Assembly (NCBI GenBank): GCA_944377825.1
Contig: CALWGA010000050.1
Span: 329-64,328, forward strand
DNA length: 64,000 nt
From: an uncultured Clostridia bacterium
GTDB lineage: Bacteria > Bacillota > Clostridia > Christensenellales > UBA1242
Reading direction: 5' to 3'
Both the position numbers and the translations under genes were made by a program. The stretch's first letter is position 1, and every line of letters begins with the position of its first letter. Below the pieces are notes generated by a model. It was not told the DNA's origin and did no database searches. It saw nothing but the letters and a program-made list of their open reading frames with translations. Positions 2,579 to 49,143 of the stretch are shown piece after piece.

Positions 2579-2809
2579 ACTTTAAGTAGCGACGGCGTCA
2601 CAAACCGCACTTCATTTCAACTTTTGTCTTACGCCAAAAGTCTTACCATTCGTTTGTTTGTTCCTTTCCCCTAAAAACGACAGGCGTTTTTAGGGTTCCC
2701 ATTTAAATGAAATGAGTGCGATTTCGTTTGGTCGCTGGTAGGCGAAAACAAGTGTCAACGCGATACTTTTCGAACGAGTTCGAAAATGAGCAAAAGCGCA
2801 ATTTTCGCC
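2579..2809 (+). repeat. Copy A of a ~230-nt conserved structured element (candidate ncRNA; transcribed strand unknown)
   Basis: Aligns along its whole length, by eye at roughly four-fifths identity, with the reverse complement of 7558-7790. It folds into a long irregular helix plus hairpins, with compensatory differences between copies (see findings). It abuts the glmS stop codon. Confidence 0.6.
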
Positions 2810-4518
2810 TACTCGACAGTCACTGACTTCGCCAAATTTCGCGGTTTGTCAGGGTTGTAGCCAAAGAGTTCGCAAATGCGTAATGCCAAAAACTGCATTG
2901 GAATAACACTGACAATCGGCATTAGTTCTGTCTGCGTTTCTGGAAGTTTGACAAGTTGATAATCGAAAAAATCATCAAATTGGCTCACAACAATAATCTT
3001 CCCACCACGTGCCTTTATTTCTTCAAGGTTAGATAGAAGTTTTGTTTTAATATTTTCCTGCGTGCAAATGGCAATCACCACCGCATCGCTATCGATAAGC
3101 GCAAGTGTGCCATGTTTAAGTTCGCCAGAGGCAATGGCAAAACAGTTAATATACGAAATCTCCTTGAGTTTCAAACTCGCTTCAAGCGCAGTGATATAGT
3201 CTAAATTTCTGCCGATAAAAAACACCTTTTTAAATTTTGCAATCTGCTTCACTAATTCTTCACTGAAAGTCACATACGGAAAGTTATCAAAAATCTCTTC
3301 CTTTGGTAATGGTATATTTGCTAGATAAAGCGAGAATAGATATAGCGAAAACACTTGACAAGTGTATGCCTTTGTGGATGCCACCGCAATCTCTCGCCCA
3401 GCAAAAGTTGAAAGCACATTTTCACATATTCGGTTAAGTAAGCAGTTCTCCATATTCGTAAGTGCCAGCATAGGCAAATTCCTTTCTTTTACCATTTTCG
3501 CAGATGCAATCGTGTCCGCCGTTTCGCCACTTTGACTGACAAAGATGTGAAGTGTGTCATCCTTTAATATCTCATTGCCATATCGAAATTCGCTGGCAAG
3601 ATATGCCCGTGCATCGACGCCCACCTTTTTGAAAAATTCCGCGCCCATAAGCGAAGCATGGTATGCCGTTCCGCAAGCGATAAGCGAAATTGAATTTAGT
3701 TTTTTTGGCAACTTGATATTTTGAATGATATTCTCTTCCTTATATTTTTTTAATGTTTTTTCAAGCACATTTTTCGTTTCAAAAATTTCACTTTCCATGT
3801 GTGTTTTATAAAAAATTTCAGAAAAATCACTGTTTTTTTCAATTTTTTCGCATTTTTTAGTGATTTTTTCGCCATTTTTATTATAAAAAATTATTTTTCC
3901 ATTTTTAACGCTTGCAAATTCATCGTCGTTTAAAGCAAAATAATTTTCGCCTTTCAACGCCAAAACATCGCTCGCAATATAGACCTCATCTTCCACATTA
4001 GAAAGATATAGTGGACTTTCACGCTTGCCCAAAACCATCTCTCCGTCACTGCCCAGCACTAGCACCGCAAATGTTCCCTGCACCTTTTTTGATGCCTTAA
4101 TAACCTTATCAATCAAAGTTCCTTTTTCACAATCTATCAAATTTAAAAAAACTTCGCTGTCAGTGTCGGAAAGACAATTTAATTTAAACTCTTCTTTCAA
4201 TTCCTTATAGTTTTCAATAATTCCGTTATGCACCATGGCAAGATTTTTCGAAGTCGACAAATGCGGATGAGCATTCTTCTCATTCACGCTTCCATGTGTC
4301 GCCCAACGAGTGTGTCCGATAACAACATTCGCACTTAAATTTTCAGTCAGCTTTTTAAGACTATCAACATCTCCAATGGTCTTGATAATGTCGATTTTTT
4401 TATTATCTAAATACGCCACTCCGCACGAATCATAGCCACGATATTCCAAAATCTTCAGCCCTTGAACGACCTCTTTAACTCCATTTCCGCCACCAACATA
4501 ACCGCAAATCCCACACAT
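2809..4518 (-). CDS. glmS: Glutamine--fructose-6-phosphate aminotransferase
   Basis: 569 aa. N-terminal MCGICGYVG (Ntn amidotransferase catalytic Cys), two SIS-type segments, and C-terminal ...DKPRNLAKSVTVE, typical of GlmS. Confidence 0.95.
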   Translation of the reverse strand: MCGICGYVGGGNGVKEVVQGLKILEYRGYDSCGVAYLDNKKIDIIKTIGDVDSLKKLTENLSANVVIGHTRWATHGSVNEKNAHPHLSTSKNLAMVHNGIIENYKELKEEFKLNCLSDTDSEVFLNLIDCEKGTLIDKVIKASKKVQGTFAVLVLGSDGEMVLGKRESPLYLSNVEDEVYIASDVLALKGENYFALNDDEFASVKNGKIIFYNKNGEKITKKCEKIEKNSDFSEIFYKTHMESEIFETKNVLEKTLKKYKEENIIQNIKLPKKLNSISLIACGTAYHASLMGAEFFKKVGVDARAYLASEFRYGNEILKDDTLHIFVSQSGETADTIASAKMVKERNLPMLALTNMENCLLNRICENVLSTFAGREIAVASTKAYTCQVFSLYLFSLYLANIPLPKEEIFDNFPYVTFSEELVKQIAKFKKVFFIGRNLDYITALEASLKLKEISYINCFAIASGELKHGTLALIDSDAVVIAICTQENIKTKLLSNLEEIKARGGKIIVVSQFDDFFDYQLVKLPETQTELMPIVSVIPMQFLALRICELFGYNPDKPRNLAKSVTVE

Positions 4519-4905
4519 ATTATTCTCCTAGAAGAATATATGAAAATCAAAAATGGTTTGTTAAATTTAAAGATTTTTAAAAAAATTCACTTTATATGTC
4601 AATTATGTAATTGATATGCAACAAAAAAATAAAACACTAAAAGATAAATCTTGGATAAATCATTAAAACATGTCCGCGCTAAGTAAAATTAAAATGACAC
4701 AAAATACACAAAATATGGTGTAGTATGCTTGCATACCACACCACAAATACAACCCAAAAATAAACATACTCAAACAAATGAACACATATTTAAAGTTTAA
4801 AATTATATTAAATATATAACAATAGTACGCAAAAAAATGCAAGCATATATTGCCTGCATTTTTAATTATCTTTATATATTACCTTTTTGTTGCTATTATA
4901 ATAAT

Positions 4906-6090
4906 TTATTTCTTCCACTTATTTCTTATCTTTTCAATCCAAGGTGGAATGGACTGACTTGGATTGACATCAACGCGTGAGGTCTGCTCGTTTTGTTCAA
5001 GTTTAACTTCTTCGCCACTTGTTTGAGGATTGTATCCAAAAGGATTGAAACTTTTAAATTCGTCCTCTTCTTCCTTCTCTTCCGCTAAATTTTCTGCCTC
5101 TGGTTCTTCCTTTTTCTCTTCCTCTTCTTCGTCATCCTTGCCTTTAAAACCAGTTGCAATGATGGTTATCTCCACCTCGTCGTGCATATCTGGGTCGATA
5201 CTGCTTCCAAAGATAAGGTTGCAACTTGGGTCGATAACCTCTTTCACCATGTTAGCCGCCTCAGTAACCTCGCGAAGAGTGATGTCGCTTCCGCCCTTGA
5301 TGTTCAAAACAACACCAGTTGCGCCTTCAATGGTGGTTTCAATAAGAGGTGATGCCACCGCCTGACGCACTGCTTCCAAAGTCTTGTTCTCGCCTTTGCC
5401 TCTACCGATGCCCATGTGAGCAAGTCCGCGATTTTTCATAACCGTTTCAATATCGGCAAAGTCAAGGTTAATCATTCCAGGGAAAACGATAAGGTCGCTT
5501 ATACCTTGAATACCTTGTCTCAAAACATCATCCGCATACCTAAACGCATCCACAAGCGTAATCTTTTCAGGCAAGATTGTGGCAAGACGCTCGTTTGGAA
5601 TTATGACGATGGTGTCCACATACTTTTTAAGTTCAGCAATGCCCTTTTCTGCGTTTTCCATTCTCTTTCTGTTTTCAAAAGCGAAAGGCTTGGTCACAAT
5701 TCCGACTGTGAGAATGCCAAGTTCCTTAGCAATCTGTGCAATAACAGGAGCAGCACCAGTTCCCGTTCCACCGCCCATACCAGCCGTGATAAACACAAGG
5801 TCAGCGCCTTTCAAAACTTCCGTGATAGAGGTTTTGCTCTCTTCAGCCGACTTTCTGCCAACTTCAGGAATACCACCCGCACCCTTTCCGCCTGTCAATC
5901 TTTCGCCGATTTGTAAACGCTTTGGCGCCTTTGAGATTAAAAGTGCCTGTTTATCTGTGTTGATTGCCACAAATTCCGCAGAAGAAACATTGGCGTCTAT
6001 CATTCTGTTGACAGCGTTATTTCCGCCACCGCCAACACCAAGTACCTTGATTTTTACCACCGATGTTGAATTGAAATCTTGTTCATCCAT
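4906..6090 (-). CDS. ftsZ: Cell division protein FtsZ
   Basis: [15 protein letters not shown] and [13 protein letters not shown] tubulin-signature motifs, acidic linker and C-terminal peptide. Start set to ATG 6090 (MDEQDF...), because the track start at 6102 is a GTG overlapping the AAGGAG RBS. Confidence 0.93.
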
Positions 6091-6169
6091 AAATAATATC
6101 ACTCCTTTTTAATATTTTAACTCTTTTTAAAGGTGTTTTGCAACTTTTTTAGAGTTATTTAATAAATTT

Positions 6170-7288
6170 TTATTCACTTAACGCACTATTCACAAGCCCT
6201 AAGATTGCTGAAAGTTCAGGTTTGTCCATTCCAGGAACTGGTGGAACGCCATATGATACATTTCGGTTCAAGCATTTTGCCAAATAGTCTTTGCCACCTT
6301 TAATCTTTGTAAGCCCTGCTCCACAAAGGTAGATTGGATAGAATGGTACGTATTCTTTCGCAAACACGCGTATGCACTCGTTGATTGTGGATGCGATAAG
6401 CCCTATTCGATAGCACACCGCCTCATTGACAAAATTGAGTGGCAACTTTAAAATTTTTCCGCCGAGAGTGGACAGTTCATATGTATCATCCTTGTCGCCC
6501 TTGAGAGATAAGACAATCTGTTTCTTCAAACTGCGCGCCTCTGTGTAGCCTATGCCACACGCTTCAGTTAAGTCGCTTGTTATGTAAGAGCCACCCATCG
6601 AAAAGGATGTCAAATTGGTCATAGCGTTATTTTTTATGAAAGCCACACTTGTCGACCTTGCTCCCACATCAATCACAATGCAAGTTCTCTCTCTTTCCTC
6701 TTCTTCCAGCACAAACATACCTTCAGCAAGCGGTTCGCTTATGTATTCCACTTGCTCAATGCCAAGTTTTGACCAAATCTTGTTAAAGAGTTTGATAAAA
6801 CCTGATTGCGCAAGCACAAGCGAAAGTTCTGCGGAGATAAAATAGCATTTTTGTTTAAGTGGATTTTGAATATTCTTCGTTTCATCAATCGTATACGAAA
6901 TTGGATTGACAGAAATTATATCCATATCATCAGCATAATTTTGCTCAGAAACCTTAGCGAAAATGGAGTCTATATCTTTTTGTGATATTGTGTGGCGATT
7001 TTTGAAATTTAGTTGGCAAGTTTTGGTTATCACTTTCGAAAACTCAGCAGGAACGCCAACATAGACCTTTCTAATCTTCTTTTTGTAAATTGATGTTATT
7101 TGAGAAAACAAGGTCATCACAGCATCGTCAAGGTATGCTTTTTCGATAAATTCGCCCTCGAAAAAGCCAGCGTAGTCGACAGACGCCTTCGCCTTGATGT
7201 TGAAGATGTTATTGACGCCTCTTTCGGCAATCATGCACGACAGTTTAGACGACCCAATTTCTATAACCGTAACACACTTTTCTGCCAT
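6170..7288 (-). CDS. ftsA: Cell division protein FtsA (actin-like ATPase), short form
   Basis: 372 aa lying immediately upstream of ftsZ. Actin-fold phosphate motifs are present (VIEIGSSKLSCMIA, VIDVGARSTSVA, YLCGAGLTKIKG). I saw no obvious C-terminal amphipathic helix. Confidence 0.8.
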   Translation of the reverse strand: MAEKCVTVIEIGSSKLSCMIAERGVNNIFNIKAKASVDYAGFFEGEFIEKAYLDDAVMTLFSQITSIYKKKIRKVYVGVPAEFSKVITKTCQLNFKNRHTISQKDIDSIFAKVSEQNYADDMDIISVNPISYTIDETKNIQNPLKQKCYFISAELSLVLAQSGFIKLFNKIWSKLGIEQVEYISEPLAEGMFVLEEEERERTCIVIDVGARSTSVAFIKNNAMTNLTSFSMGGSYITSDLTEACGIGYTEARSLKKQIVLSLKGDKDDTYELSTLGGKILKLPLNFVNEAVCYRIGLIASTINECIRVFAKEYVPFYPIYLCGAGLTKIKGGKDYLAKCLNRNVSYGVPPVPGMDKPELSAILGLVNSALSE

Positions 7289-7557
7289 AACCCCTCTTTT
7301 AACTATATTCTAACTTTTTATAGATAAAAAGTCAAACAAAAAATGAAAAATATTTATAAAAATTAAGAATTTTTAATATTTATGCAATTTGATAAAGTAT
7401 CTAAAAATTTACAAAAATAAATCGCACTATTTTTTGAAAATTTTCTGTTATTTATAGCAAAAACTTGCTTTTTTTTGCCGATTATACTAAAATTATTGAA
7501 GGAGAGAACTTTTGTAGTGCCCAAAAGTTGCAAAAGACATTGGGGAGTTTCAATTTC

Positions 7558-7790
7558 GGCGAAAACTGCACTTTTGCTCGTTTTCGAAACGAGTTCGAAA
7601 AGCATCGCACTTACACTTGTTTTCGCCTTCTCGCGACCACACGAAATCGCACTCACACCATAAACGGGAACCCTAAAAATGCTTGTCATTTTTTGGGAAA
7701 AGGAACAAACAAACGAATGGTAAGCGTTTTGATGTTTTGCATTTAAACGCGAAATGAAGTGCAGTTTGTGACGCTGTCGCGACTTAAAGT
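7558..7790 (-). repeat. Copy B of the ~230-nt structured element, inverted relative to copy A
   Basis: Its reverse complement aligns with 2579-2809, sharing blocks such as ACTTTAAGT.GCGAC.GCGTCACAAAC.GCACTTCATTTC, CTTACCATTCGTTTGTTTGTTCCT and GTGAGTGCGATTTCGT.TGGTCGC. It lies between the ftsA upstream region and serS. Confidence 0.6.
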
Positions 7791-7891
7791 AGAAGGAATA
7801 TTTACAAATTGTTTACTTTGGAAAGGCGTGGAACAGTTTTTTTGATTACAACTTTATGTTGTTAAATTCTTCATAAAATAAGGAGTTAAAT

Positions 7892-9184
7892 ATGATAGAC
7901 ATAAACTTAATAAGAACGAATAAAGAACTTGTGAAAGAAAATATTAGAAAGAAATTCCAAGACGAAAAATTGCCGCTTGTTGACGAAGTGGAAGAGTTAG
8001 ATAAGAAAAATCGCGCTCTAAAGCAAGAGGCTGACTCTTTGAGAGCATCAAGAAATAGTCTAAGCGAAAAAATCGGAAAATTGATGCGAGAAAAGAAGAT
8101 TGAAGAGGCAAACACAATCAAAGAAACCGTTAAAAAGAACAACGAACGCATCGCCGAGATTGAAAAAGAAGAGAGCGTGCTTGACAAGAAAATCAAGAAG
8201 ATTATGATGACCATTCCGAACATCATTGACGATAGCGTGCCAATCGGTAAGGACGACAGCGAAAATGTAGAAGTAGAAAGATTTGGCGAGCCAAAAGTGC
8301 CAAACTTTGAAATTCCATATCATGCCGACATCTTAAAAAGATTTAACGGCTTAGATAAGGAAAGCGCAGGAAGAACAAGCGGAAACGGCTTTTACTATCT
8401 TATGGGCGACCCAGCGCGCTTAGTTAGCGCCATGATTAACTACGCACGCGACTACATGATTGAAAAGGGCTTTATCTACTGCATCCCGCCGTTCATGATT
8501 CGAAGTGATGTTGTCAATGGCGTTATGAGTTTTGCTGAAATGGACGCCATGATGTATAAGATTGAAGGCGAAGATTTATTCTTAATCGGCACCAGCGAAC
8601 ACAGCATGATAGGAAAATTCAAAAACCAAATCATAAACGAAAAAGAGTTGCCGATAACCATGACCTCATATAGCCCATGCTTCCGTAAAGAAGTTGGCGC
8701 GCATGGCATTGAAGAGCGTGGAATCTATCGCGTTCACCAATTCGAAAAGCAAGAGATGATTGTGCTCTGCAAGCCAGAAGAGAGCATGGAGTGGTATAAC
8801 AAGATGTGGAGTTACACAGTGGAAATCTTCCGCAATATGAACATCCCTGTCCGCACGCTTGAATGTTGCAGTGGCGACCTTGCTGATTTGAAGGTTAAAA
8901 GTTGCGATGTGGAAGCATGGAGTCCGCGCCAAAAGAAATATTTTGAAGTCGGTTCTTGCTCCACTTTAGGAGACGCTCAGGCAAGGAGACTCGGCATAAG
9001 AGCAAAGGGCGAAAAAGGAAACTACTATGTTCACACTCTTAACAACACCGTGCTTGCCTCCACCCGCGCACTCATTGCCCTACTTGAGAACAACTTGCAA
9101 GAGGACGGAAGCGTGCTTGTGCCAGAGGTTCTTCAAAAATACATGGGCGGAAAGACCAAAATCGTGCCTGTCGATAAAAAGTAA
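7892..9184 (+). CDS. serS: Seryl-tRNA synthetase
   Basis: 430 aa with an N-terminal coiled-coil arm (MIDINLIRTNKELVKENI...) and class II core motifs (...FRKEVGAHG..., ...RVHQFEKQEM..., ...NNTVLASTRALIALLEN). AAGGAG RBS. Confidence 0.93.
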   Translation: MIDINLIRTNKELVKENIRKKFQDEKLPLVDEVEELDKKNRALKQEADSLRASRNSLSEKIGKLMREKKIEEANTIKETVKKNNERIAEIEKEESVLDKKIKKIMMTIPNIIDDSVPIGKDDSENVEVERFGEPKVPNFEIPYHADILKRFNGLDKESAGRTSGNGFYYLMGDPARLVSAMINYARDYMIEKGFIYCIPPFMIRSDVVNGVMSFAEMDAMMYKIEGEDLFLIGTSEHSMIGKFKNQIINEKELPITMTSYSPCFRKEVGAHGIEERGIYRVHQFEKQEMIVLCKPEESMEWYNKMWSYTVEIFRNMNIPVRTLECCSGDLADLKVKSCDVEAWSPRQKKYFEVGSCSTLGDAQARRLGIRAKGEKGNYYVHTLNNTVLASTRALIALLENNLQEDGSVLVPEVLQKYMGGKTKIVPVDKK

Positions 9185-13645: not shown

Positions 13646-14107
13646 TTATCTATTAATCTCTTTTTCTTTTACTCCATAAGGAGTTTTAGAAATTTTTATT
13701 TCTTCATTTCCGCTTAGAATACTCTCTCTGTATTGTAAACAAGTGTTAATATCGCCAATCTGTTTTTCAGAATAATGATTTCCAAACACCACCACACCGC
13801 CTTTAATCGGCATGCCTTTCCCATCTTCAGCAAAATAAGCAGGGTAATATTTCTTCAAAAATTCATCTTGCTCAGGAGTGGTGTAGATTGTGTAAATAGA
13901 ATTTTTACTTAAACCATGCCTGTTTTTGAAAACATTGGCAGGAATAAAAGACTTTTGCTGAGCAAATTCATCAAATGGTTCATCATTTGGATAAGTGAAA
14001 GGCAAATTTATCTTTTCTTTACTTAGATAAAAATCTTTAATTTTCAAATTTCTTGCATCAAAGATACTTATGCGATATTTTCCTTTTACTTCATTTTTGT
14101 TAATCAT
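13646..14107 (-). CDS. Hypothetical 153-aa protein, paralog 2 of the rpoB-rpoC insert
   Basis: Shares FDA..., PFTYP, EPF(D/E)EF, KSFIP..VFK.RHGL, TIY..PEQD.FLK.YY, DG.G..IK...VVFGNHY.E.QI.DI.TCL with ORF 14167..14589. No family recognised. Confidence 0.6.
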   Translation of the reverse strand: MINKNEVKGKYRISIFDARNLKIKDFYLSKEKINLPFTYPNDEPFDEFAQQKSFIPANVFKNRHGLSKNSIYTIYTTPEQDEFLKKYYPAYFAEDGKGMPIKGGVVVFGNHYSEKQIGDINTCLQYRESILSGNEEIKISKTPYGVKEKEINR

Positions 14108-14166
14108 TTGCCTTCCCTCCTTTATGTTTTTAATAGGTAAATTTTCATTGGTTATTATTAATATTT

Positions 14167-14589
14167 TTATAATGAATGTTTTCTTTCATTGTCGTCCATT
14201 TTTGTTTTTAGTTTCAAACAGGTGTAAATATCATCTATTTGACTTTCAGTGTAGTGATTTCCAAAGACGACTTTGCTATCTTTAATAAGTTGACCAATCC
14301 CATCTTTAGCATAGAATGTTGAATAATAATCTTTCAAAAACTTGTCTTGTTCAGGTGAGCAGTAGATTGTGTGAATTATTTTTCTAAACAAACCATGCCT
14401 TTTTTTAAAAACATCTAAAGGAATAAAAGATTTTATATGTTGATTAAATTCTTCAAATGGTTCCACATACCTTGGATAAGTGAAAGGCTGTTTTATTTCC
14501 TCACCGTTCAAAAAGAAATCATAAAAACACATACATGTCGCATCAAAAACAGTCACACAATATTTTTTCTTTTCGTCTATGAAACTCAT
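14167..14589 (-). CDS. Hypothetical 140-aa protein, paralog 1 of the rpoB-rpoC insert
   Basis: Shares the motif set listed for 13646..14107. AAAGGAG RBS lies before ATG 14589. Same strand as rpoB and rpoC. Confidence 0.6.
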   Translation of the reverse strand: MSFIDEKKKYCVTVFDATCMCFYDFFLNGEEIKQPFTYPRYVEPFEEFNQHIKSFIPLDVFKKRHGLFRKIIHTIYCSPEQDKFLKDYYSTFYAKDGIGQLIKDSKVVFGNHYTESQIDDIYTCLKLKTKMDDNERKHSL

Positions 14590-14716
14590 TCTACTCCTTT
14601 ATGTCTTTATTAAGCAATGTTTTATCTAGAATTAACACTTTTTACCACACTCTATTTAAATAATCCACAACTCTTCACTGAAAACCGAAGGTTTTCCTTC
14701 ACTTTTCACTCTTCAC

Positions 14717-29824: not shown

Positions 29825-32500
29825 TCAGCCTCCAAAGAGTTGTCTGATGTAATCGTTGGCAACAACTTGGACGGTTGTTCTCGAAGTTGGACCTGTGATT
29901 AAGAATGCTTGTCCAACGCCGGCGGTAACGATGGAGTTTTGTTCCTCTTCGTTGATACCGCCTGACTTTTTGTAAAGTTCAGTTAGGTCGTTCACGTCGT
30001 TTGGCGCAAGCGAGAAAATCATGGAATACTGACACGCGTTGATAACGGCGGTTGACTGCCTTTTAATTTCATCCGTTCCGATAAAGTCGGCAAGGTTCTG
30101 CGTAATGACGATTTGCATACCGCCATACTTTCTGATACGCTTAGCCATTTGCGCCATGAAGTCAAGCGCGATAGGATATTTAGGATTGATGAAGATGTGC
30201 GCCTCATCCACCGCAACGATGACCTTTCTGTTCTTATGGTACTTCGCGTTAAAGTCCTTGTTATTGATGATTTCATTGTTCAAGTATCTAAAGACGAGAA
30301 GCATCTGCGCGTTGGTAACCGTTGGGTTATTGCTTGCAACAAGCGACTGAAAGTTGAAGGTGACAAAGTTTTCGTTTGTTTCAATGGAGGTTGGTCCATT
30401 CCAAAGGGCGCTGTTACGTCCGCCAGTGGCAAACTTTTTAATGTAAGTTTCAACTGTCATCAAGTTTCTAACAGTGAAATCGTCCTTCGCCGTCTTTAAG
30501 CGTTTCAAAATCAAGTTGTATAGGTCGTCGAAGATAGGATAGTCCTCAGGTTTCAACTTAGAAAGGTTTGTTTTATAGTCTATCCCCTTTCCCTTATATA
30601 CATCAATAATGAGCGAGTTCAAAACCTCAAAGGCGTCGGAGTTTATTCCTTCCAAAATCACTCTAAAGAATTGTTCAAGGAATTGAAGGTGCTGAGCGAA
30701 CGAGTCGTCAACATTCTCCACAATTTCCTTTTCGATAAGTTGCCCATATTCGTCATACTCTTCCTTCTCGTCCTCAGAAGCGTCAAGCGAAGTGATGATG
30801 TGGAAAGGATTGATGATACCTTGAAGCGACGAGCCGACATCAATAAACTTTCCGCCCAAGTTTCTCGTCAGCGTCTTATACTCATTTTCAGGGTCAAGAA
30901 TGAAAATCTTACAGTTGTCAGCCGCCAAATTTGTCAAAAGCGTCTTTGTGGCGTAACTCTTTCCCGAGCCTGATTTTCCGATAATCATCATGTTGGAGTT
31001 TACTCTCTCGCGGTCACGCTTGAAGAAGTCGACAAACACTGGATACTCATTGTCGCCCAAATACATGCCGTTATCGTCTTGCAAGGAGTTCGAAATGAAT
31101 GGGAAAGCGGCTGCAAGCGTGGTGGTTGGAATGCCACGTTTAGTCGATTTCATGGTGTCAAGACGCGAAATATTGGAAGAAATGAAGCCGTCAATCTGAC
31201 GCGAGAACATCTCGCTATACTTAAAGCCCTGTTGCTTGAGCATTGCCCTAACATCCTTTTTAGCCGCCTCTTCGCTGACAATAAAGGTGTTGACGTTGTA
31301 GAGTTGTTCGTTGTTGTTTTTAAGACTGACAAGCAGTTGTCTCAAGGTCTCAAGGTGAGTTTGATAGTCAATCTGCGTCGAACTACGCCCTGCCTTACTG
31401 AGTTTTGACTCCATTTCCATGATAGCCTTATCAATCTGTTTTTCACTGTCGAGTCTAGGCATAGGATTGAATTTCATTATAACCTTTGTTCTATCCAAAA
31501 GGAAGAAGGATGCCGCCCACGCATTGCCCACTTGAAGAGGATAGTCGATGATGTTATAAACACGATATGTATCCTTGTCGATATTGTATTTTGCGATGTT
31601 AAACTTAATCTTCTCAGGCTTTATCCAGTCGTTATACTTATTGAATGGCATAACATCCAAATCTCTTTCGTCAAATTCCTTACCCAAATTCGCCTTTAAG
31701 AAGACATATAAGTCCTTGCCAGTCAAAATTTTAGAACTTATAGGATTTAAGGATGTGGCAAGAGAAGTCACCATACCGCTGACCGTATTCTCTAGTAATT
31801 CTCTGTCGCGGTCATAGACAACGATATAGAAATAATCCTTATAAATCTTCTGTTGACGGTTTATGTATTCAAAGAAGGAAACGCGCTCTTCAAAGATAGG
31901 TGCACGCGCGTCAATCTCAGCCTCCGAAATCTGACCATCATACTGCATATCATAGAGAGTGTCATATTTTCTATTCTCATTATGGATGTAGTTATCCAGC
32001 ACCATAGGCTTTCGAATTTTCACTATCGAGCAGGTTTGGTCATTGTTAAGTCGCCTAAGTGCGTTAGCAAAACTATCTATAACATTATCCTGAAAACTTT
32101 CCGTCAAAAGCGTGAAGAACATCGGCGCAACTTCAAGCACCATTCCGTAGTATATGCCAAAATTTATGTATCTATCTTGAACAACGCCAGTATAAGGTAA
32201 GATAGTGTTGATATCGCCCTTCTTACCTTCCTTGTCGTTTGCGAATCTCTTTTTTTGCACCATAAATTTCAACAGGTAAACCATGGTGGTGTAAAATCTC
32301 ACATCGTCGGCAAACTTGAAGAACAAAGAAACCGCCACGATGACCCAAGCAAGACCCACCCAAATATGGTAATCAAAGTTGGCGGTGAAAAGAACAATGG
32401 CGATAGCAAGGAAGATGGCTCCAAGCAGAATATCAAGCCCAGTGACTCCACGGAAAAATTCAAATCTGACCTTTGTCTTTCTCGGTATCAATCTAACCAT
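29825..32500 (-). CDS. VirB4/TrsE-family secretion ATPase with N-terminal transmembrane segments
   Basis: 891 aa. Two to three N-terminal hydrophobic helices (GLDILLGAIFLAIAIVLFTA, IWVGLAWVIVAVSLFF), Walker A IIGKSGSGKSYATK, ILDPENEY, Walker B VIVAVDEAHIF and ITQNLADF match the VirB4-type motif set and order. The stop lies 14 nt before the giant lipoprotein ATG. Confidence 0.75.
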   Translation of the reverse strand: MVRLIPRKTKVRFEFFRGVTGLDILLGAIFLAIAIVLFTANFDYHIWVGLAWVIVAVSLFFKFADDVRFYTTMVYLLKFMVQKKRFANDKEGKKGDINTILPYTGVVQDRYINFGIYYGMVLEVAPMFFTLLTESFQDNVIDSFANALRRLNNDQTCSIVKIRKPMVLDNYIHNENRKYDTLYDMQYDGQISEAEIDARAPIFEERVSFFEYINRQQKIYKDYFYIVVYDRDRELLENTVSGMVTSLATSLNPISSKILTGKDLYVFLKANLGKEFDERDLDVMPFNKYNDWIKPEKIKFNIAKYNIDKDTYRVYNIIDYPLQVGNAWAASFFLLDRTKVIMKFNPMPRLDSEKQIDKAIMEMESKLSKAGRSSTQIDYQTHLETLRQLLVSLKNNNEQLYNVNTFIVSEEAAKKDVRAMLKQQGFKYSEMFSRQIDGFISSNISRLDTMKSTKRGIPTTTLAAAFPFISNSLQDDNGMYLGDNEYPVFVDFFKRDRERVNSNMMIIGKSGSGKSYATKTLLTNLAADNCKIFILDPENEYKTLTRNLGGKFIDVGSSLQGIINPFHIITSLDASEDEKEEYDEYGQLIEKEIVENVDDSFAQHLQFLEQFFRVILEGINSDAFEVLNSLIIDVYKGKGIDYKTNLSKLKPEDYPIFDDLYNLILKRLKTAKDDFTVRNLMTVETYIKKFATGGRNSALWNGPTSIETNENFVTFNFQSLVASNNPTVTNAQMLLVFRYLNNEIINNKDFNAKYHKNRKVIVAVDEAHIFINPKYPIALDFMAQMAKRIRKYGGMQIVITQNLADFIGTDEIKRQSTAVINACQYSMIFSLAPNDVNDLTELYKKSGGINEEEQNSIVTAGVGQAFLITGPTSRTTVQVVANDYIRQLFGG

Positions 32501-32769
32501 ATCTTTTCCCCTTTAAATACTAATTATATATCTTTATGATACTACAAATTAAGTCAAAAATACAAATGAATATAATAAAAAATATGAAAATTTTTATTAT
32601 TTAAAATTAATATAAAAATAGGAAAAAATATTAAATCAAATAAAAATATTAAATTTGATTAAAATTTTAATTAAAATAGATAAAATTTAATTAAAAATAT
32701 CATTTTTTTTAATAATTTTTAATAAATTTAAGGTATTTTTGGCAATTTTTTGTCAATTTTGCGATTTTT

Positions 32770-33411
32770 CTATTTTATTATAAAGAAAAGTTCGTTAAGC
32801 CTATTGTGTTTTTTCGCCTTATCAAAAATCTGCTTTGTGACCTTCACACCTTCCTTTATGATTAGTTCATTATTCATGCCGAGCAATGTTTCAAACGCAA
32901 CTTTGCCAAGATAATAGTTAGGCGAAAGATTGATAACGATAGGAAGTGCCACCTCCTTATCTTCCATAATCTTCACAGGCATATTTTCATTTTTCGCCCT
33001 AGGGAACTTTTTGCGTCTACGAACAAAAGAGACAAAGAGGATTTCCTCTCCACTATCAGAAATAAATTTGGCGTTAATCTCACATCTATCCGTCACAATC
33101 TTTTTAAGTGTGCGATATTGAAAAACATATTCCTTAACCACGCCGTAATCCTCTCCAGAATTTGAAAGCACTTTCTTTCTAAACTCGCCACTCTCTCCAA
33201 CATACTCCAAAACCGAACTATTTTCAATAAGCACACAATCATCTATTTTCTTGATATTGTCAAAACTGAGAAAATACTCCTGCTCGCTTTCCTCATCGAC
33301 AATAATATAGCCAACCTTCTTCAAAAGTTTAAAGTCAATGCAAGGCTTAAGCACATACCCCACACTCTTCTTCTCGTTTAAAGCGATAACCTTCTTTGCA
33401 ATATTTTCCAC
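32770..33411 (-). CDS. Hypothetical protein, possibly with two PRC-barrel-like domains
   Basis: The track start (TTG 33468) has no RBS. I prefer GTG 33411, preceded by AAGGAG-6 nt, giving MENIAKKVIALNEKKSVGYVLKP...GYIIVDEE (YlmC/YmxH-like pattern, weak). Confidence 0.4.
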   Translation of the reverse strand: MENIAKKVIALNEKKSVGYVLKPCIDFKLLKKVGYIIVDEESEQEYFLSFDNIKKIDDCVLIENSSVLEYVGESGEFRKKVLSNSGEDYGVVKEYVFQYRTLKKIVTDRCEINAKFISDSGEEILFVSFVRRRKKFPRAKNENMPVKIMEDKEVALPIVINLSPNYYLGKVAFETLLGMNNELIIKEGVKVTKQIFDKAKKHNRLNELFFIIK

Positions 33412-33715
33412 AACAAACTCCTTAATAAAACGATATGTGGAAAATAAAAAATTAGAATAATCTAACAAAATTAGACAGTTTTTGCAAAAAGGAAAAGACA
33501 GATTAAAACGAACAAAATATTTTTAAAGTTTAAATTAATTATTAAAGTTTAAATTGAATAATAACAAAATAAAACATCAAAATAAGCAAAATTTAATAAA
33601 AAATAAAGAAAAAATCGCGATTTTTTTTGATTTTTTTGTGATTTTTTGTCATTTTTTGTTTTTATTTTAAATTATTTTAAAAAATATTAAATTTTAAATC
33701 ACCTGAAAATTTATC

Positions 33716-33940
33716 TTATTTTGATTTTTTCTTAACATTTTCATTTAGTTTTTTCAAAACAAAGTCGCTTTCAAGCCCATGCACTAGACACGCTTCTTCC
33801 ACTGTCTCCATTTGACTAACTGGACAGGATATGCAGTGCATACCAAAACCCATAAACACATCGGCAAGATTTTCATCTATTTCAAGCACCTCGCCTATTG
33901 TCATATCTTTATTGATTAAATCTTCTTTTTGTTTTTTCAT
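33716..33940 (-). CDS. DUF1858-type small redox-disulfide domain protein
   Basis: 74 aa. ...DMTIGEVLEIDENLADVFMGFGMHCISCPVSQMETVEEACLVHG... matches the hybrid-cluster-protein-associated CxxC domain pattern. Confidence 0.7.
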   Translation of the reverse strand: MKKQKEDLINKDMTIGEVLEIDENLADVFMGFGMHCISCPVSQMETVEEACLVHGLESDFVLKKLNENVKKKSK

Positions 33941-39728: not shown

Positions 39729-42083
39729 TTATCGATTTTTATTGCCTAAGGTCGTCAATAACTGCAGTTTGTTGTAAAATTTCGACTCTTCAAGCGGTTT
39801 CTTAACATTTTTGGCTTCAACGTGACTAAAGAAATCTCCCTCTTCCTTTTTAATAAATCCTAACTCCAAAAAGGTCAAATATGCCACATAGAAGGTGTCG
39901 AATGTCACCTTACCTTTTAGTTTTGCCTCGTAAAAGTCGACTGGCGAATAAAATTTCTGCCCACCGCGAGAGACAAGCGCTTTAAAGACCTTAGCAAAAC
40001 TTTCTCGCGACAAATTGACATTTCTAAACCTATTCTTATCCTCTTTAATTTCGGTTGGAAGATAAATCTCTGCATTTGTCACTTTCTTTATCTCGCTTAG
40101 ATAGCCACTGTCAAGCACAGGAGACAAAAAGACAATCTTCTCAAAATTCTTCGCCCACTCCACGCCACGTGGCGCCAAAAGCAAACTGTTGTAACCTATA
40201 ATGTTTTGGTCATATATGCCCATATGGAAGATATTTTCCTTCGAGTAATTTCGCGAAAAGGCGACATATTCATAGGCGTCAAAAGTGACAAACGCCGTAC
40301 CATACACACTCTTTTCCGTGCCTGCCACAAAGTTCAAAAGTTCGTTCGGCGGATAATAGGCAAAATCCAAACTTTCGACATTGTCATAACAGAGTTCTTC
40401 AAACTGCACAGGATAAGTGTAGGTGTTGGCATTCTCGATTATGAAACCGCCTGCGTCGAAATAGGAAACATTTCCGCTTTTACCCTGCCCTTGAAATTCA
40501 AATATGAAAGACTTGTATCTTGAGAAGAAAAGAGCGTTAAAATTCTTTGCAAAATTGAAATAGACAAGTTGCAAATCGCCGATTTTAATGTTGCAATGTT
40601 GTGGACAATACTTCATCGGCAAAAGTTCAATCTTCTCAGTATTTGTTCTAAATTTTGGCTTTGGATTTCCGCATCCATATGGCTCTAAAAGTTTAAGTTC
40701 GCTTAAAAACCTATCGTCAATCTCTTCAAGTTTGATGTCGAGGTCGTAATATTTGATTGGAATAAACACATCGTCGTTGATATTTTGAAAGACGAAAGCG
40801 TTGACGCGTTTAGAAAACTCCTCATAGTTCTCTCTTTTAAGTGTGAGTCCTGCCGCCATGGTGTGACCGCCAAAGGTCTCTAAAATATCCGACATGGAAG
40901 AGAGCAGTTCGTGGATGTTGATGTCGTCAATACTTCGCCCTGAGCCATGCAAAACATCGCCCACTTGCGAGAACAAAAAGACAGGTCGGTTATACTCTTC
41001 CACAAGCCTTGCACACGCAATTCCAAGCACGCCCTGGTCCCACTTCTTCGACGCCAAAGTGATGACGCGCGTCTTAGACAAATCCATCTTCTTTATCGCC
41101 TTTTCCGCATCTTCCATGATAATCGAAGAAAGTTCCTGACGCTTTTGATTATGCCGATTTATCCTTTGAAGATAGGTCTTAATCTCCACCATATCTTCGC
41201 TCATATAAAGTTTCAAACTATCTTCAGCCCTGCCCATTCTGCCAGCCGAATTGATTTTTGGCGCAATCTTAAAAGCAATGTCGCTTGCTGAAGGATTAGA
41301 TAACGAAACCTTGTTCTCTTTGAAAAGTTGTTTTAGTCCTATCGGCAGTTTGTCGAAGCATAGAAATCCACGCTTGACAATATTTCTATTCTCGCCCGTC
41401 AGCGAAACGATGTCGGCAATGGTGGCAATCGCAGCGATAGGCAAAAATTCCTCCGCCTTTTTCTGCCCGAGTAGCGCCTCTGAAATCTTATACGCCATGC
41501 CTGTTCCGCAAATCTCAGTAAAAGGATAGTCCTGCCCCTTGATTTTTGCGTTAAGCACCAAAGTCCCAGGCAAAATATCCGGAATTTCGTGGTGGTCTGT
41601 TATGATGATGTCTATCCCCTTTTGCTTGCAATACTCCACTTCGTCATGGCATGAAATACCGCAGTCGACCGTGATGATAAGGTCTGGACAAAACTTCTTC
41701 TCAATCTTGTCAATCACTTCGCGTGATAAACCATATCCGTCCTCGTAGCGGTTTGGTAAGTAAAAGGACGCATCAATTCCTAACCTTTTCAGCGTTTTCA
41801 GCATGATAGCCGTTGCACTGATACCGTCAACATCGTAATCGCCAAATATGAGAACCCTATCGCCTAATTCTTTTGCAAGTTTAATCCTTTCGCAAAGTTC
41901 CTTCATGCCTTTAATTAAGAACGGGTCCAAAAGTTTTCCAACTGATAGGTATTCCTCTATTTCCTCCTCACTTGCAAGCCCACGTGACAAAATCAAATAC
42001 ATCGTTGACGGTAAAACATTAAATTTTTCTGCATACTCCTTAACAAGAGCAGAATTTTGATTAAAAAACTTCTTAAATATCAT
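39729..42083 (-). CDS. recJ: Single-stranded-DNA-specific exonuclease RecJ
   Basis: 784 aa with DHH-family motifs IFGDYDVDGISATA, ITVDCGIS, IIITDHHE and a GGH motif (FGGHTMAAG). Confidence 0.9.
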   Translation of the reverse strand: MIFKKFFNQNSALVKEYAEKFNVLPSTMYLILSRGLASEEEIEEYLSVGKLLDPFLIKGMKELCERIKLAKELGDRVLIFGDYDVDGISATAIMLKTLKRLGIDASFYLPNRYEDGYGLSREVIDKIEKKFCPDLIITVDCGISCHDEVEYCKQKGIDIIITDHHEIPDILPGTLVLNAKIKGQDYPFTEICGTGMAYKISEALLGQKKAEEFLPIAAIATIADIVSLTGENRNIVKRGFLCFDKLPIGLKQLFKENKVSLSNPSASDIAFKIAPKINSAGRMGRAEDSLKLYMSEDMVEIKTYLQRINRHNQKRQELSSIIMEDAEKAIKKMDLSKTRVITLASKKWDQGVLGIACARLVEEYNRPVFLFSQVGDVLHGSGRSIDDINIHELLSSMSDILETFGGHTMAAGLTLKRENYEEFSKRVNAFVFQNINDDVFIPIKYYDLDIKLEEIDDRFLSELKLLEPYGCGNPKPKFRTNTEKIELLPMKYCPQHCNIKIGDLQLVYFNFAKNFNALFFSRYKSFIFEFQGQGKSGNVSYFDAGGFIIENANTYTYPVQFEELCYDNVESLDFAYYPPNELLNFVAGTEKSVYGTAFVTFDAYEYVAFSRNYSKENIFHMGIYDQNIIGYNSLLLAPRGVEWAKNFEKIVFLSPVLDSGYLSEIKKVTNAEIYLPTEIKEDKNRFRNVNLSRESFAKVFKALVSRGGQKFYSPVDFYEAKLKGKVTFDTFYVAYLTFLELGFIKKEEGDFFSHVEAKNVKKPLEESKFYNKLQLLTTLGNKNR

Positions 42084-42236
42084 TTTGTTTTACCTATTTT
42101 TCATTAATATTATATAAACTTTCCGCAAAATAATCAAGAGAAAATGCACATAAATATAAAAATAAATAAAAAATGCTTGCAAAAATCAAGCAAATATGTT
42201 AAACTTTAAGCGTTGCAACATATCACAAAAATCTTT

Positions 42237-42322
42237 GCTGGTGTGGCGGAATGGCAGACGCACGGGACTCAAAATCCCGCGAGGGCAACTTCATGTGGGT
42301 TCGACCCCCACCACCAGCACCA
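42237..42322 (+). tRNA. tRNA-Leu (anticodon CAA), type II with long variable arm, CCA encoded
   Basis: Acceptor GCTGGTG/CACCAGC, anticodon stem CGGGA/TCCCG with loop CTCAAAA, T-arm GTGGG-TTCGACC-CCCAC, then discriminator A plus CCA. A hairpin and T-run follow at about 42333-42385. Confidence 0.9.
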
Positions 42323-42456
42323 AACAAAGATAAAACGAACCTTGAAAGAGAACAATTCTCCCACTCAAAGTTCGTTTTATTTTTTAATAAAGATTGATAT
42401 GGAAATATAATATGTAGCGAATGTAATTTTTAACTTTTATTTATTAAATAAACAAA

Positions 42457-43579
42457 TTAAAAAAGTTTTTTATAATAATTTTTTACTTCATGATAACGTA
42501 AATTTTTGAAAAATATTTTGCCAGCAATAGTTGGGTTTAATTGTTTAACTTTACTTAAAGGAAAAGAAACGATTTCTCCATTGTTGGTGCATTGAGCCAT
42601 ATAAATAAAGAAAAGTGAATTTATTTTATATCCAGAAACTTTACTTTTCCTTCCTCGTTCTTTTCTCAAGGATAAATTATTTCTATTAATGGAAACAATA
42701 CCATCTTTAATAACGCCACCCTTTTCTTCAATAAATCTTTTTAAAGCATTTGGAGTCCAAACATAATAAGGGTTTCTTCCTGCAGGTCTTATTTCGCCAA
42801 CTATTTCTCCCCACATTGAAATCTGGTTTGCTGGCATCATAACTAAATATCCATCAGAATCCTCAGTGCAAACCACATCAGCATATTTCTTCGTATAGTT
42901 GTTTGTAACAGCAATATTTACACTTTCTACACTAAAATTGTTTTCATTACTCCCCATTTTTTCAAAAAAATTTAAACTTTTTTGCTCTTCTAGCATTTGT
43001 TTGAATTGTGGATACCTTTTTAAAAATTCGTCTGTTATAAGTATATTGCCATCTTCTTTGTATTTAGGCAAATCCGGCTCACTGGTTTTCGCCCCTGGTT
43101 CTTTAAATTCTATAGTATAAATATTTAGGTCTATAACTGTGATAAGAGCGCTATCTATTCCATTACAACCACCAGCCTGAATAAGCATTCTTGACTTATC
43201 GTCATTAGAATAGGCATATCTAGGATACAAACTATATGATTTTAATAAGTTTAATACATCCTCAGGTATAAAAGAATGATTTTCAAAACAATTAGTAAAA
43301 ATTTTTAAATTGAACATATTAGCAAAAGTTTGAGCATATACACACTCACTAAAAACTGCTGATTGGATATTATGACCACTTTCATAACTTTTCTCTATTT
43401 GATGAGCTAAAGCAGGGCAATTTCCCCTTATTTTTTCAAGATTTATATCTTGTTTTGAAGATGCAGTATCCCATAATTTTTTTTCTTTCTTTTTTATTGT
43501 AAATCACTTTTAATGGAGAATAACTATAAAATTCTCTCATTATTTCTTTTTGTAATTTTGTTAATGGTATAACACTCAT
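42457..43579 (-). pseudogene. Putative PD-(D/E)xK restriction endonuclease with reading frame split at an A-tract
   Basis: Frame A: ATG 43579 overlaps the methyltransferase stop as ATGA, giving MSVIPLTKLQKEIMREF..., with a stop at 43436-43438. Frame B is open from 43503 and continuous with ORF 42457..43317 (...LWDTASSKQDINLEKIRGNCPALAHQ...NMFNLKIF...). Both frames are open across A6 (43500-43505) and A8 (43487-43494). A candidate D...EFK nuclease motif is VIDLNIYTIEFKE. Confidence 0.5.
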
Positions 43580-45228
43580 ACATTTACCTCCAAAGCCATA
43601 TTAGAATGAACTACATCAAACACTTTTTCGCTAATATCTAACCCAAGAATATCTAAAATTTTTCTGTTGATTTTATCTCTGTATCTACTAGGAAATTTTA
43701 TATTCTCTTGAACTCCAACATTGTTTTTGGTTATTATAAAATTTGAAGAAATGTTAATCATCTCATTTGCTGTCTCTTTAAAAAATTTTTTATCTTCTGC
43801 TGTCAACATATCAAAAAATACTGGCAAACTTAACAATAATTTTTTCGGATAAGTTATTCCACCATCAAACAATCGCCAATACCAGTAAGCAAAAGACGAA
43901 TTTATTAAACAAAAAACAAAATAGAATACACTCTCATCTTCAAACCTTAAAACTATTTGTCCCCGTCTATTCATTACTCCTTTTGAAGCTGTTGTATAAT
44001 ATCTACAAGTGTTAGGCATCGACAAAATATATTGCCCATATTGACTAACATATTCACCTAATGTGCTTTTGCTTTTATTTTGCCACGCATCCCAAACCAC
44101 TTCAAGGTCTTTAAAGCATTTAAGATACATTTGGTGTTGTTTTGAAATTATTTGATATCTTTGACTTACAAATGATTCCAAAACATCACATTTCAATAAT
44201 ATTTTTCTTTCTATATTTTTAAATCTAATAAGCGGACTTATTTTAAATCCTTTAAAACCTTCCATATTTTCAACAACAGTAATTGATGCCCTCACAGAAT
44301 TTGCTGTATTTGTATTAAAAATACCTTGTTTTTTACCACAAAAAATATTGCCGGGAACATTGTCAAACGAAACGATAAATCCATTATAATCATTCATAAT
44401 TTCTCTTAACGGATAAAATTTACTGCCGCGTAAAAAACTATATGGTGATATTATCACCGAACTTTCACTTTGTTTTAAAATTTTTTCAATAAACATTGCA
44501 TATAATTCTTTCGTTTTGATTGCCGTTTTTGTCTTATCCCAATCTAAAGAAAGATACTTAACTGTTGAGTAAGGTGGATTAGATATAACTTTACAATTTG
44601 CTGGTAAAGATATGGAATTTGATAAAAAATCACAGTGCACAGCATTAATATAGTCAGACAGGTCTTTGCCATATTTTAATAATAAAATAGTTTTACATAT
44701 GCTTAGTGCCGTTTCATCTAAATCATATAAATAAAGCCTTCTATTTTTTATTATTTCAACAGCAGCATCTTGCCCAATAATTTCAAAAAAAGCTAAAATT
44801 AACTTACCTGTTCCACAAGCCACATCACAAATATTTTCGCCTTTTAAATCTTTAAACCAATTAGCCATCACATAGGCCACATCATCAGGAGTATAATATT
44901 GTCCGTTCACCTTTTTGTTGTTTTTATTCTCTAACGCCAAACCAATTTCGTATAGGTCAGCCAAATTTTGAATTTTTAAAAATTTATTTTTTGAGTTATA
45001 ATAGTTTAATAAATAATAATTTATATACTTCCATGTTTCGTTCAGTCCAATTTCTGCAATATCTTTCCTATATGCGTCTATGTTATAATTGTCAAATTTT
45101 TCAAAATAGAAATTTTCATTAATATTTATAGAGGATAAAAAATCTGAATACTCAGCCCGTTTTGTCATAGTGCTAAGTTCTGAAAATTTATATAAATTAA
45201 GTTGTGCTTCCGCAATAAACTCTTTCAT
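43576..45228 (-). CDS. N6-adenine DNA methyltransferase (gamma-class, Eco57I/TaqI-like)
   Basis: 550 aa. GQYYTPDDVAYVMANW, the AdoMet motif DVACGTGKL and the catalytic NPPY (VISNPPYS) occur in the order I then IV. The long C-terminal part is presumably the target-recognition domain. Confidence 0.85.
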   Translation of the reverse strand: MKEFIAEAQLNLYKFSELSTMTKRAEYSDFLSSININENFYFEKFDNYNIDAYRKDIAEIGLNETWKYINYYLLNYYNSKNKFLKIQNLADLYEIGLALENKNNKKVNGQYYTPDDVAYVMANWFKDLKGENICDVACGTGKLILAFFEIIGQDAAVEIIKNRRLYLYDLDETALSICKTILLLKYGKDLSDYINAVHCDFLSNSISLPANCKVISNPPYSTVKYLSLDWDKTKTAIKTKELYAMFIEKILKQSESSVIISPYSFLRGSKFYPLREIMNDYNGFIVSFDNVPGNIFCGKKQGIFNTNTANSVRASITVVENMEGFKGFKISPLIRFKNIERKILLKCDVLESFVSQRYQIISKQHQMYLKCFKDLEVVWDAWQNKSKSTLGEYVSQYGQYILSMPNTCRYYTTASKGVMNRRGQIVLRFEDESVFYFVFCLINSSFAYWYWRLFDGGITYPKKLLLSLPVFFDMLTAEDKKFFKETANEMINISSNFIITKNNVGVQENIKFPSRYRDKINRKILDILGLDISEKVFDVVHSNMALEVNV

Positions 45229-45383
45229 AAGTTAGTTCCTTTTTATTAATATTGAATATTATATCACATAAATTTTAAAATTGATACGCTTTTTATGTAA
45301 TTTTAACTAAAACATAGAACGTTTTATAAAACCTATTCACACACAACTCTTCCCTATTTGTCTTAAATACCTCTAACTTCCGT

Positions 45384-46031: not shown

Positions 46032-46107
46032 ATTTACTCCTAAGGTTTGTTTTCAATTTTCCATAAAAATATCTATAAAAGTTTATCATAAAAGTTTTAA
46101 AAAACGC

Positions 46108-46665: not shown

Positions 46666-46685
46666 TTTACCCTGCCATTAACATA

Positions 46686-49013: not shown

Positions 49014-49143
49014 AAATACCTCTTATATTTTTATGAAAATTATAAAAAATAGGTTAAAAAATACTAAAAAATTGATTTTTTTCTATATTTTTTCGAAAAA
49101 TTTGAATTTTAATTGTAATTTTCGAATCTTTCTCATAATTCTA

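Follow-up and report, generated by a model that had tools for sequence, protein, structure and literature searches.

The DNA analysed here, which we refer to as the window, is a 64-kb stretch of low GC content (37%) from an uncultured Clostridia lineage, whose closest named relative is Candidatus Caccovivens (FtsA 67%, GlmS 77%). The genes around the element are rpsG (970–1497), rpsL (starting at about 1964), glmS (2809–4518, with its stop codon TAG at 2809–2811), ftsZ (4906–6102) and ftsA (6170–7288), all on the minus strand, followed by serS on the plus strand (7892–9184, with its ATG at 7892) and then by rpoC, again on the minus strand. Two segments of about 230 nt, inverted relative to each other, lie between these genes: copy A is located in the long rpsL-glmS spacer, and copy B in the 604-nt ftsA-serS spacer. 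They had been noticed in an earlier reading of the sequence alone, and the repeat is real: 2579–2809 matches 7790–7558 with 82% identity over 235 nt (blastn, E = 1e-61), in agreement with MAFFT. The pair is the strongest non-coding repeat in the window, which contains no further full copies.

The base pairing described in the sequence-only reading was recovered in full. The hairpin CCCTAAAAACG/CGTTTTTAGGG of copy A (2669–2679/2685–2695) corresponds to ..AAAAATG/CATTTTT.. in copy B, where a C-G pair has become U-A. AGCGAC (2588–2593) pairs with GTCGCT (2731–2736), and in copy B CGCGAC (7781–7776) pairs with GTCGCG (7637–7632). Where copy A has the hairpin ACTTTTG..CAAAAGT (2620–2641), copy B has GCGTTT..AAACGC (7750–7724), and both copies contain GGCGAAAA..TTTTCGCC around TTTTCGAA..TTCGAAAA. 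Whichever strand is taken, each copy folds better than its shuffled versions (z from −2.4 to −5.1). As had also been noted, a TATAAT box is found at 2566–2571, and the copies have no ORF in common and encode nothing conserved. Homology to related elements extends beyond the ends of the 230-nt segments first described, copy B lying within a 375-nt insertion (7505–7879).

The element matched no Rfam family at either gathering or relaxed thresholds. A scan of the whole window against Rfam 15 at the gathering threshold gave a single tRNA, and both copies together with five related loci gave only chance-level matches at E up to 1–10. The gathering thresholds for 6S, raiA, T-box, glmS ribozyme, SRP, tmRNA and RNase P RNAs were not reached, and no glmS ribozyme was detected upstream of glmS. 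ARAGORN found no tmRNA and only ordinary tRNAs, and we rejected a tmRNA-like or tRNA-like identity; the tRNA-like pieces near some copies are partial duplicates of tRNA-Leu or tRNA-Thr. Plasmids, phages and viral contigs gave no match either, nor did searching the literature by sequence. A small ORF starting at a conserved AUG after the Shine-Dalgarno-like AAAGGA was also considered. By eye, its peptides differ between copies in length (5 to >17 aa) and in sequence, and this AUG is therefore not coding.

Some further features of the window were noted. The rpoB coding region contains a direct repeat of about 430 nt (13737–14168 and 14216–14642, 68% identity), which suggests an internal duplicated domain. 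The stretches 32500–33760 and 42000–52000 are very AT-rich (GC 0.30–0.33), with strongly negative GC skew, and hold several long imperfect palindromes that resemble one another (for example 33480–33759 and 32603–32760). The 3′ spacer of ftsZ and its terminator (4750–4904) are swapped for unrelated sequence in the conspecific contigs L002 and L019–L021.

Related copies were collected by scanning large collections once each, using exact words (20–23-mers) only. An exact 20-mer from the most conserved block was found in 7 stretches from 6 ‘uncultured Clostridia’ MAGs among 185,579 species representatives, and a second pattern, used on metagenomes, gave 5 true metagenome contigs; a further match (L011) was rejected as a eukaryote-like chance match. 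Syntenic loci at graded distances (L014–L025) were added from look-ups anchored on FtsA and GlmS. The exact 20-mer gives a core copy number of 1–2 per MAG, a count that may be too low given that MAGs can under-count repeats: in L005, L006 and L021 the contig ends fall within the element. The element is thus narrowly distributed and of low copy number, in a small group of uncultured gut Clostridia.

Modules of the element and their arrangement

The 230-nt segment is a composite. It contains at least three units that in related MAGs are also found apart from one another, differently ordered or oriented, namely a terminal hairpin domain (TD), a scaffold hairpin (SH) and a core of 115 nt with three helices. 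TD consists of GGCGAAAAC...GUUUUCGCC enclosing an inner hairpin. SH has the form NGCGACC-AAACG-AAWUCGC-loop-GCGAWUU-GUCGCN-ACUUAAAG, and both of its stems covary. The core comprises a 5′ hairpin (H2), a long-range helix ACAAAC/GUUUGU and a variable hairpin enclosed by that helix.

In copy A the units lie on the minus strand. TD (2738–2812; 2809–2740 according to nhmmer) is formed by GUAGGCGAAAA...UUUUCGCCUAC around the UUUUCGAAC/GUUCGAAAA hairpin, and its first bases overlap the TAG of glmS. It is followed by the first arm of SH (AGCGACCAAACGAAAUCGCACUC..., 2714–2736), by the core (2596–2710, CM match 127 bits) and by the second arm of SH with its tail (GUCGCUACUUAAAGU, 2579–2593). Along the folded strand, the core runs from H2 (2669–2695) through the purine-rich linker AAAGGAACAAACAAACGAAUGGUAAG (2642–2667) and the variable hairpin (2620–2641) to the tail GAAAUGAAGUGCNGUUUGUGACG (2596–2618), which pairs back to the linker as ACAAAC/GUUUGU. 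Copy B has the same units on the plus strand: TD at 7558–7627, in which GGCGAAAAC (7558–7566) pairs with GUUUUCGCC (7619–7627), the first arm of SH at 7630–7655, the core at 7656–7773 (CM match 109 bits) and the second arm of SH with its tail (GUCGCGACUUAAAGU) at 7776–7790.

The sequence-only reading had treated the two copies as one RNA, which is not supported: parts of it are found alone, rearranged or inverted elsewhere, and copy B is an insertion that is missing from conspecific contigs, as described below. The core occurs alone in four loci (L003, L004, L007 and L012). In L009 it interrupts TD rather than SH, while L008 and L014 have an SH that is inverted relative to the core and takes the place of H2. 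The rpoB-rpoC spacer of L014, where the spacer of the window is only 50 nt long, carries a 5′ flank, TD and an intact SH with no core. Downstream of tRNA-Pro, L001 carries two cores and a tandem series of several TD/SH units, and H2-like hairpins are also found alone.

The rpsL side of copy A (2431–2575) was observed to be a shared set of modules too, with a TATAAT-bearing block that includes GTTGTGGAT and a hairpin of about 50 nt, TGATTTTGCGA..TCGAAAATCA; this set is duplicated in L009 (5585–5885) and inverted beside the core of L003 (5569–5627). Given that GTTGTGGAT resembles a DnaA box and lies upstream of copy A, a replication origin was considered and rejected: the window shows no excess of such boxes (22 against 18 expected) and no switch in GC skew.

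The folded strand and its orientation to transcription

Compensatory changes had been proposed from the two copies, and a larger alignment bears this out. In 14 core copies, 97.9% of the cells pair and 16 of the 28 pairs are double-changed, a result reached in 0 of 500 shuffles; this alignment was fitted to the model, and slid controls give 33–48% pairing cells. One subfamily has a compensatory change in the long-range helix, from ACAAAC/GUUUGU to GCAAAC/GUUUGC. The outer stem of SH, AGCGAC/GTCGCT, likewise covaries, being replaced by CGCGAC/GTCGCG, TGCGAC/GTCGCA, ACGGC/GCCGT or GCCAC/GTGGC in other copies. The unpaired linker AAAGGAACAAACAAACGAAUGGUAAG and tail GAAAUGAAGUGCNGUUUGUGACG, of 26 and 23 nt, are nearly invariant while the stems drift, a pattern that would be less usual for a passive repeat than for a recognition site or a functional RNA.

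The two strands differ markedly in how they accommodate these changes. For 12 core copies, the consensus fold has an energy of −26.89 kcal/mol on the strand that reads in the sense of glmS and serS, compared to −12.65 kcal/mol on the opposite strand, from which the sequence-only reading had its RNAs transcribed. When cells are counted on one structure, both strands have 299 Watson-Crick cells. The glmS/serS-sense strand has a further 26 G.U cells, no A.C cells and 8 unpaired cells, whereas the opposite strand has no G.U and 34 unpaired cells: its mismatches are mostly A.C or C.A, at the positions that are G.U or U.G on the other strand. Copy A is thus folded on the minus strand and copy B on the plus strand, and the structural constraint acts on one strand only.

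This argues against the proposal that the copies are two independent small RNA genes on the strand opposite to the folded one, each starting after a -10-like box and resembling 6S or raiA RNA. The TATAAT at 2566–2571 is kept in the orthologous L002 and in the homologous flanking module of L009, and the strand concerned also folds well. However, the box belongs to a flanking module that is missing from copy B and from most other copies, and lies at an unfavourable distance (15 or 19 nt) from a -35 element. The sequence upstream of copy B and of most cores is unrelated, consisting for example of tRNA fragments or the ends of coding regions; that strand carries no terminator; and no 6S or raiA match was found even at E up to 10. 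No conserved promoter, terminator or locus belonging to the element itself was found, and we consider such small RNA genes very unlikely. The opposite orientation, with copy A as a 3′ UTR of glmS and copy B as a leader of serS, had been mentioned in passing as an alternative, and is the one favoured by the evidence.

We infer transcription of the element from its position and orientation. In every one of the 12–13 contexts that could be read, the folded strand has the direction of the gene or tRNA before it or, where the element is a 5′ UTR, of the gene after it; L013 looked like an exception until a tRNA-Thr was found immediately before the element. In about 5 of 11 cases a tRNA gene (tRNA-Leu, tRNA-Pro or one of two tRNA-Thr isoacceptors) directly precedes the core and points the same way. 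Local GC skew, a crude measure at this scale (the orthologous L004 and L012 were assigned opposite ways), places the folded strand on the putative lagging strand in about 6 of 15 contexts, and copies A and B occupy opposite strands in a window whose skew is uniform. It is thus transcription, and not replication, that the orientation follows.

The asymmetry between strands would also be expected of a single-stranded DNA intermediate, in which G.T-tolerant pairing on one strand fits as well as G.U pairing does in RNA. The modules might then be recognition hairpins mobilised by a REP-associated tyrosine transposase or one of the IS200/IS605 type. Consistent with this, the modules are rich in hairpins, terminal inverted repeats are absent, L001 has arrays of units, and TD of copy A starts with GTAGGCG, reminiscent of the GTAG of REP sequences. 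On the other hand, the orientation tracks transcription and not the replication strand, the copy number is low, and no such transposase gene was seen in the loci examined. The core has no fixed target motif beside it, and for the same reason we rejected an IS200/IS605-type end or guide-RNA scaffold. A 6-nt duplication such as that found at the resolved junction (below) is not made by IS200/IS605-type insertion. A function as single-stranded DNA is accordingly improbable in our judgement.

Some tRNA-adjacent cores are flanked by partial duplicates of the neighbouring tRNA. We observed a repeat of 78–85 nt, comprising the tRNA-Thr 3′ end and terminator, on both sides of the core in L007 (5700–6062), and a fragment of the tRNA-Leu D arm and anticodon arm after the core in L004 (6245–6605) and L008 (1–300), both of which also have an inverted 5′ tRNA piece within the preceding terminator hairpin. 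At the L007 junction, GTCGCG is common to SH and tRNA-Thr. No convincing terminators were found adjoining the modules.

A further complementarity was seen within the element. The 5′ arm of TD in copy B, AAACTGCACTT (7563–7573), is complementary at 11 of 11 positions to AAGTGCAGTTT in the invariant core tail (7757–7767), and the equivalent pairing in copy A includes three G.U pairs when read on the folded strand. An alternative long-range helix could account for this, or a remnant of inverted ends (GGCG..AAACTGCACTT at either end of the stretch from TD to core).

The insertion upstream of serS and the spacer behind glmS

The insertion that contains copy B (7505–7879, plus strand) is present in L021 and L022, and missing from the conspecific L019 and L020 and from the sister species L014–L016. 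L019 and L020 are approximately 96% identical to the window in ftsA-ftsZ, and have serS joined to ftsA without these 375 nt. Given that the sister species are empty, the presence of the insertion is the derived state. The sequence AAGGAG occurs on both sides of it and only once in the empty L019 and L020, resembling a target-site duplication. The left copy (7499–7504, plus strand) is the original Shine-Dalgarno sequence of serS, and the right copy (7880–7885, plus strand) is the functional one, 6 nt upstream of the ATG. The empty site reads ...TAAAATTATTAAAGGAGTTAAATATG (also written ...CTAAAATTATTAAAGGAGTTAAATATG), and the filled site reads ...CTAAAATTATTGAAGGAG and AAGGAGTTAAATATG on either side of the 375 nt. 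This is the one clean pair of empty and filled sites that was recovered; at the rpoB-rpoC insertion of L014, at most TAA is repeated at the junction. The empty alleles are more diverged on the serS side (86–93%) than on the ftsA side (96%), and the polymorphism may therefore have come by homologous allele exchange rather than by a very recent insertion.

Copy B is flanked within the insertion by further modules. On the 5′ side (7507–7557, plus strand) there is a hairpin AACUUUUG..CAAAAGUU and a spacer, in common with the rpoB-rpoC element of L014. The weakly structured 3′ part (7791–7879, plus strand) is also partly common to L014 (AAUAUUU..UUUACUUU..AAAGGCGU).

A probable serS promoter, TTGCTT-17 nt-TAAAAT (7465–7493, plus strand), lies upstream of the insertion, and the same motif is found at the same place before serS in L014, L015, L016, L019 and L020, though a simple promoter scan did not flag it. 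Copy B should therefore be transcribed as part of the serS 5′ UTR, on the folded strand. This position, together with that of copy A upstream of rpsL, a conserved fold and invariant loops, would suit a cis-regulatory leader, whether riboswitch-like or sensing an r-protein or aminoacyl-tRNA synthetase, of serS and of rpsL-rpsG-fusA. However, conspecific and sister genomes have the same serS promoter with no element, and these empty sites largely refute the leader reading. More widely, serS lacks the element in L014–L016, L019, L020, L024 and L025. Other copies lie after tRNA genes or between convergent genes, so that neither a constant position upstream of one gene family nor presence in close relatives is seen, and there is no T-box or other Rfam match. 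For copy A, rpsL has its own consensus promoter (TTGACA-17-TATAAT, 2232–2204, minus strand) downstream of the element, which points to copy A as a glmS 3′ UTR and not an rpsL leader. On this evidence we consider a regulatory leader very unlikely.

TD of copy A begins at the stop codon of glmS, TAG being followed directly by GCGAAAA. The same junction is found at glmS in relatives and at two unrelated genes (L009 and L006). An exact-protein look-up of GlmS for an empty copy A site returned no record, and among the GlmS homologues there was no clean empty site, only different arrangements of modules. L022 has copy B and lacks copy A; in L022–L024 glmS is followed by a mini-TD, an H2-like hairpin and half an SH, and in L025 by a different array of hairpins. 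In the latter (7705–7830) we observed a hairpin at the glmS stop codon (TAG followed by GCGAGGCGGTGCCTCGCC) and then four tandem units of about 24 nt, each consisting of AGTGAAGG and a short hairpin that is self-complementary but of different sequence.

Two further observations concern the rpsL side. A gene for an 876-residue protein with matches to sigma-70 regions 2 and 4 lies between glmS and rpsL in L024 (7950–10580), and also starts in L022 at 6951. Its presence in some strains or species but not in the window identifies the glmS-rpsL spacer as a variable spot. The rpsL promoter is followed by a leader of about 240 nt, with a terminator-like hairpin GACGCGAAATTCGCGTC and a U-run (2045–2029, minus strand). 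This leader (2029–2232) is conserved in L024 and L025, has no Rfam match, and could serve the S12-S7-EF-G operon as an attenuator or r-protein leader.

Comparison with known repeats and interpretation

Several families of small structured repeats resemble the element. The BOX elements of Streptococcus pneumoniae, built as boxA-boxB(n)-boxC and grouped here with RUP and SPRITE, are thought to alter the expression or stability of co-transcribed genes (PMC3049150). Like the element, they are small non-coding modular units of variable number and order, extensive secondary structure and strain-variable occurrence (PMC3049150), and its modules too are separable and vary in number, order and presence. 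Both lie in intergenic DNA that is co-transcribed with its neighbours (PMC3049150), as far as the element's transcription can be judged from its position. However, BOX elements have terminal modules that pair and more than 100 copies, in contrast to the 1–2 cores per MAG and the absence of detected terminal inverted repeats here; the orientation of the element to transcription looks strict, unlike that of BOX; and the streptococci are unrelated to its host lineage. The comparison covers the organisation of the elements.

ERIC/IRU elements of enterobacteria and Correia elements of Neisseria are transcribed imperfect palindromes that affect RNase cleavage and mRNA stability (PMC3049150). They are structured repeats of 100–150 nt and share with the element a location in transcribed intergenic regions, often at gene ends, and presence or absence at orthologous sites. 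Nevertheless, they are single long palindromes with defined inverted ends and a TA target duplication, whereas the element is a mosaic that combines several different hairpins with long unpaired stretches that are invariant, and repeats the 6-nt AAGGAG at its one resolved junction.

REP/BIME sequences, which act as 3′ stabilisers or attenuators, also consist of hairpin units and conserved linkers after stop codons or between cistrons, and form tandem arrays, as in L001. REP units, which number in the hundreds and have a link to RAYT transposases, are GC-rich palindromes of 20–40 nt that carry a conserved GTAG, whereas the units described here are AT-rich, 55–115 nt long and of low copy number. 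GTAG precedes TD in copy A only, copy B having UUUCGGCG, so that the element does not fit the description of a REP sequence.

As for MITEs, the element is non-coding and shorter than 400 nt, and has a duplication like that of a target site at one junction (AAGGAG). Other features do not fit a classical MITE, namely the absence of terminal inverted repeats, the apparently low copy number and the length of the unpaired stretches that stay invariant. Within the 375-nt insertion there is only an imperfect inverted repeat of 10 nt, 20–25 nt inside each end, and the 11-nt complementarity between TD and the core tail is internal, not terminal. There are 2 copies in the 64 kb, and exact core 20-mers number 1–2 per MAG, which is unlike classical high-copy repeats, though MAGs may under-represent repeats and contigs do end in the element. 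No partner insertion sequence with matching ends was found in the loci examined, in plasmids or in phages. We also considered a relic of a Tn7-like element, given the glmS and tRNA flanks, and rejected it by eye, finding no TGT...ACA end, 5-bp duplication or repeated transposase-binding sites.

The external transcribed spacers at the 3′ end of tRNAs can act as sponges, and small RNAs are also derived from 3′ trailers and 3′ UTRs. The core resembles these in its position just behind tRNA or coding regions, whose direction it shares, and in having conserved single-stranded sequence between its hairpins. Its low copy number and its invariant unpaired stretches make a specific RNA function possible. 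The core, and especially its three-helix domain, might thus be a functional RNA released from tRNA-operon or mRNA 3′ trailers, for example a 3′-UTR-derived small RNA or a protein-binding decoy, with the surrounding repeats being incidental. The near invariance of the linker and tail beside hairpins that change by compensation, the compensatory change in the long-range helix, the 1–2 copies per MAG and the roughly 5 of 11 contexts directly 3′ of a tRNA, always in its direction, all favour this reading. Against it, 3′-trailer small RNAs are fixed at one locus and use the terminator of the parent transcript, whereas the core changes its locus, is embedded in other repeats and lacks any conserved promoter, terminator or site of processing. 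An intrinsic terminator stands before the core in L004 and L007 and leaves no space for a promoter. The locus varies between species, with presence and absence among strains, and in the stretches examined the core is missing from relatives at FtsA identities of 85% or lower. We regard this functional RNA as unlikely. When targets complementary to the linker were sought, copies A and B themselves were the sole matches.

A related suggestion, to which we give somewhat less credence still, is that the 75-nt domain made up of the linker, the variable hairpin and the tail is an undescribed functional RNA module that relocates between 3′ trailers, on the transcribed strand only. If true, this would imply RNA-mediated copy-and-paste in bacteria, or a host factor that binds the invariant purine-rich internal loop.

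The explanation that we prefer, and think probably correct, is that the element represents a new family of small structured mosaic intergenic repeats, similar in kind to BOX, ERIC and BIME, which are carried in host transcripts and subject to selection at the RNA level. As a mosaic repeat, it would be carried as RNA within the mRNAs of its host and the trailers of tRNA operons, where selection would keep the RNA folded. After glmS and the tRNA genes it would provide a stable 3′ structure that hinders exonucleases, and before serS it would form a long, structured but tolerated leader. Its modules would spread and be reshuffled by putative copying and pasting. The 6-nt identities at the resolved junctions and the lack of terminal inverted repeats favour template switching at short homologies, or illegitimate recombination, as the route, and the duplication at the junction may alternatively have been made by a transposase.

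If this is correct, the uncultured gut Clostridia of the clade near Candidatus Caccovivens have one more family of small structured interspersed repeats. Its discovery is also a warning that structured segments present in two copies should not be called RNA genes. The element marks both contig break points and strain-variable sites in these MAGs, and its insertion exactly in a Shine-Dalgarno sequence, rescued by duplication of that sequence, provides a clean natural case.
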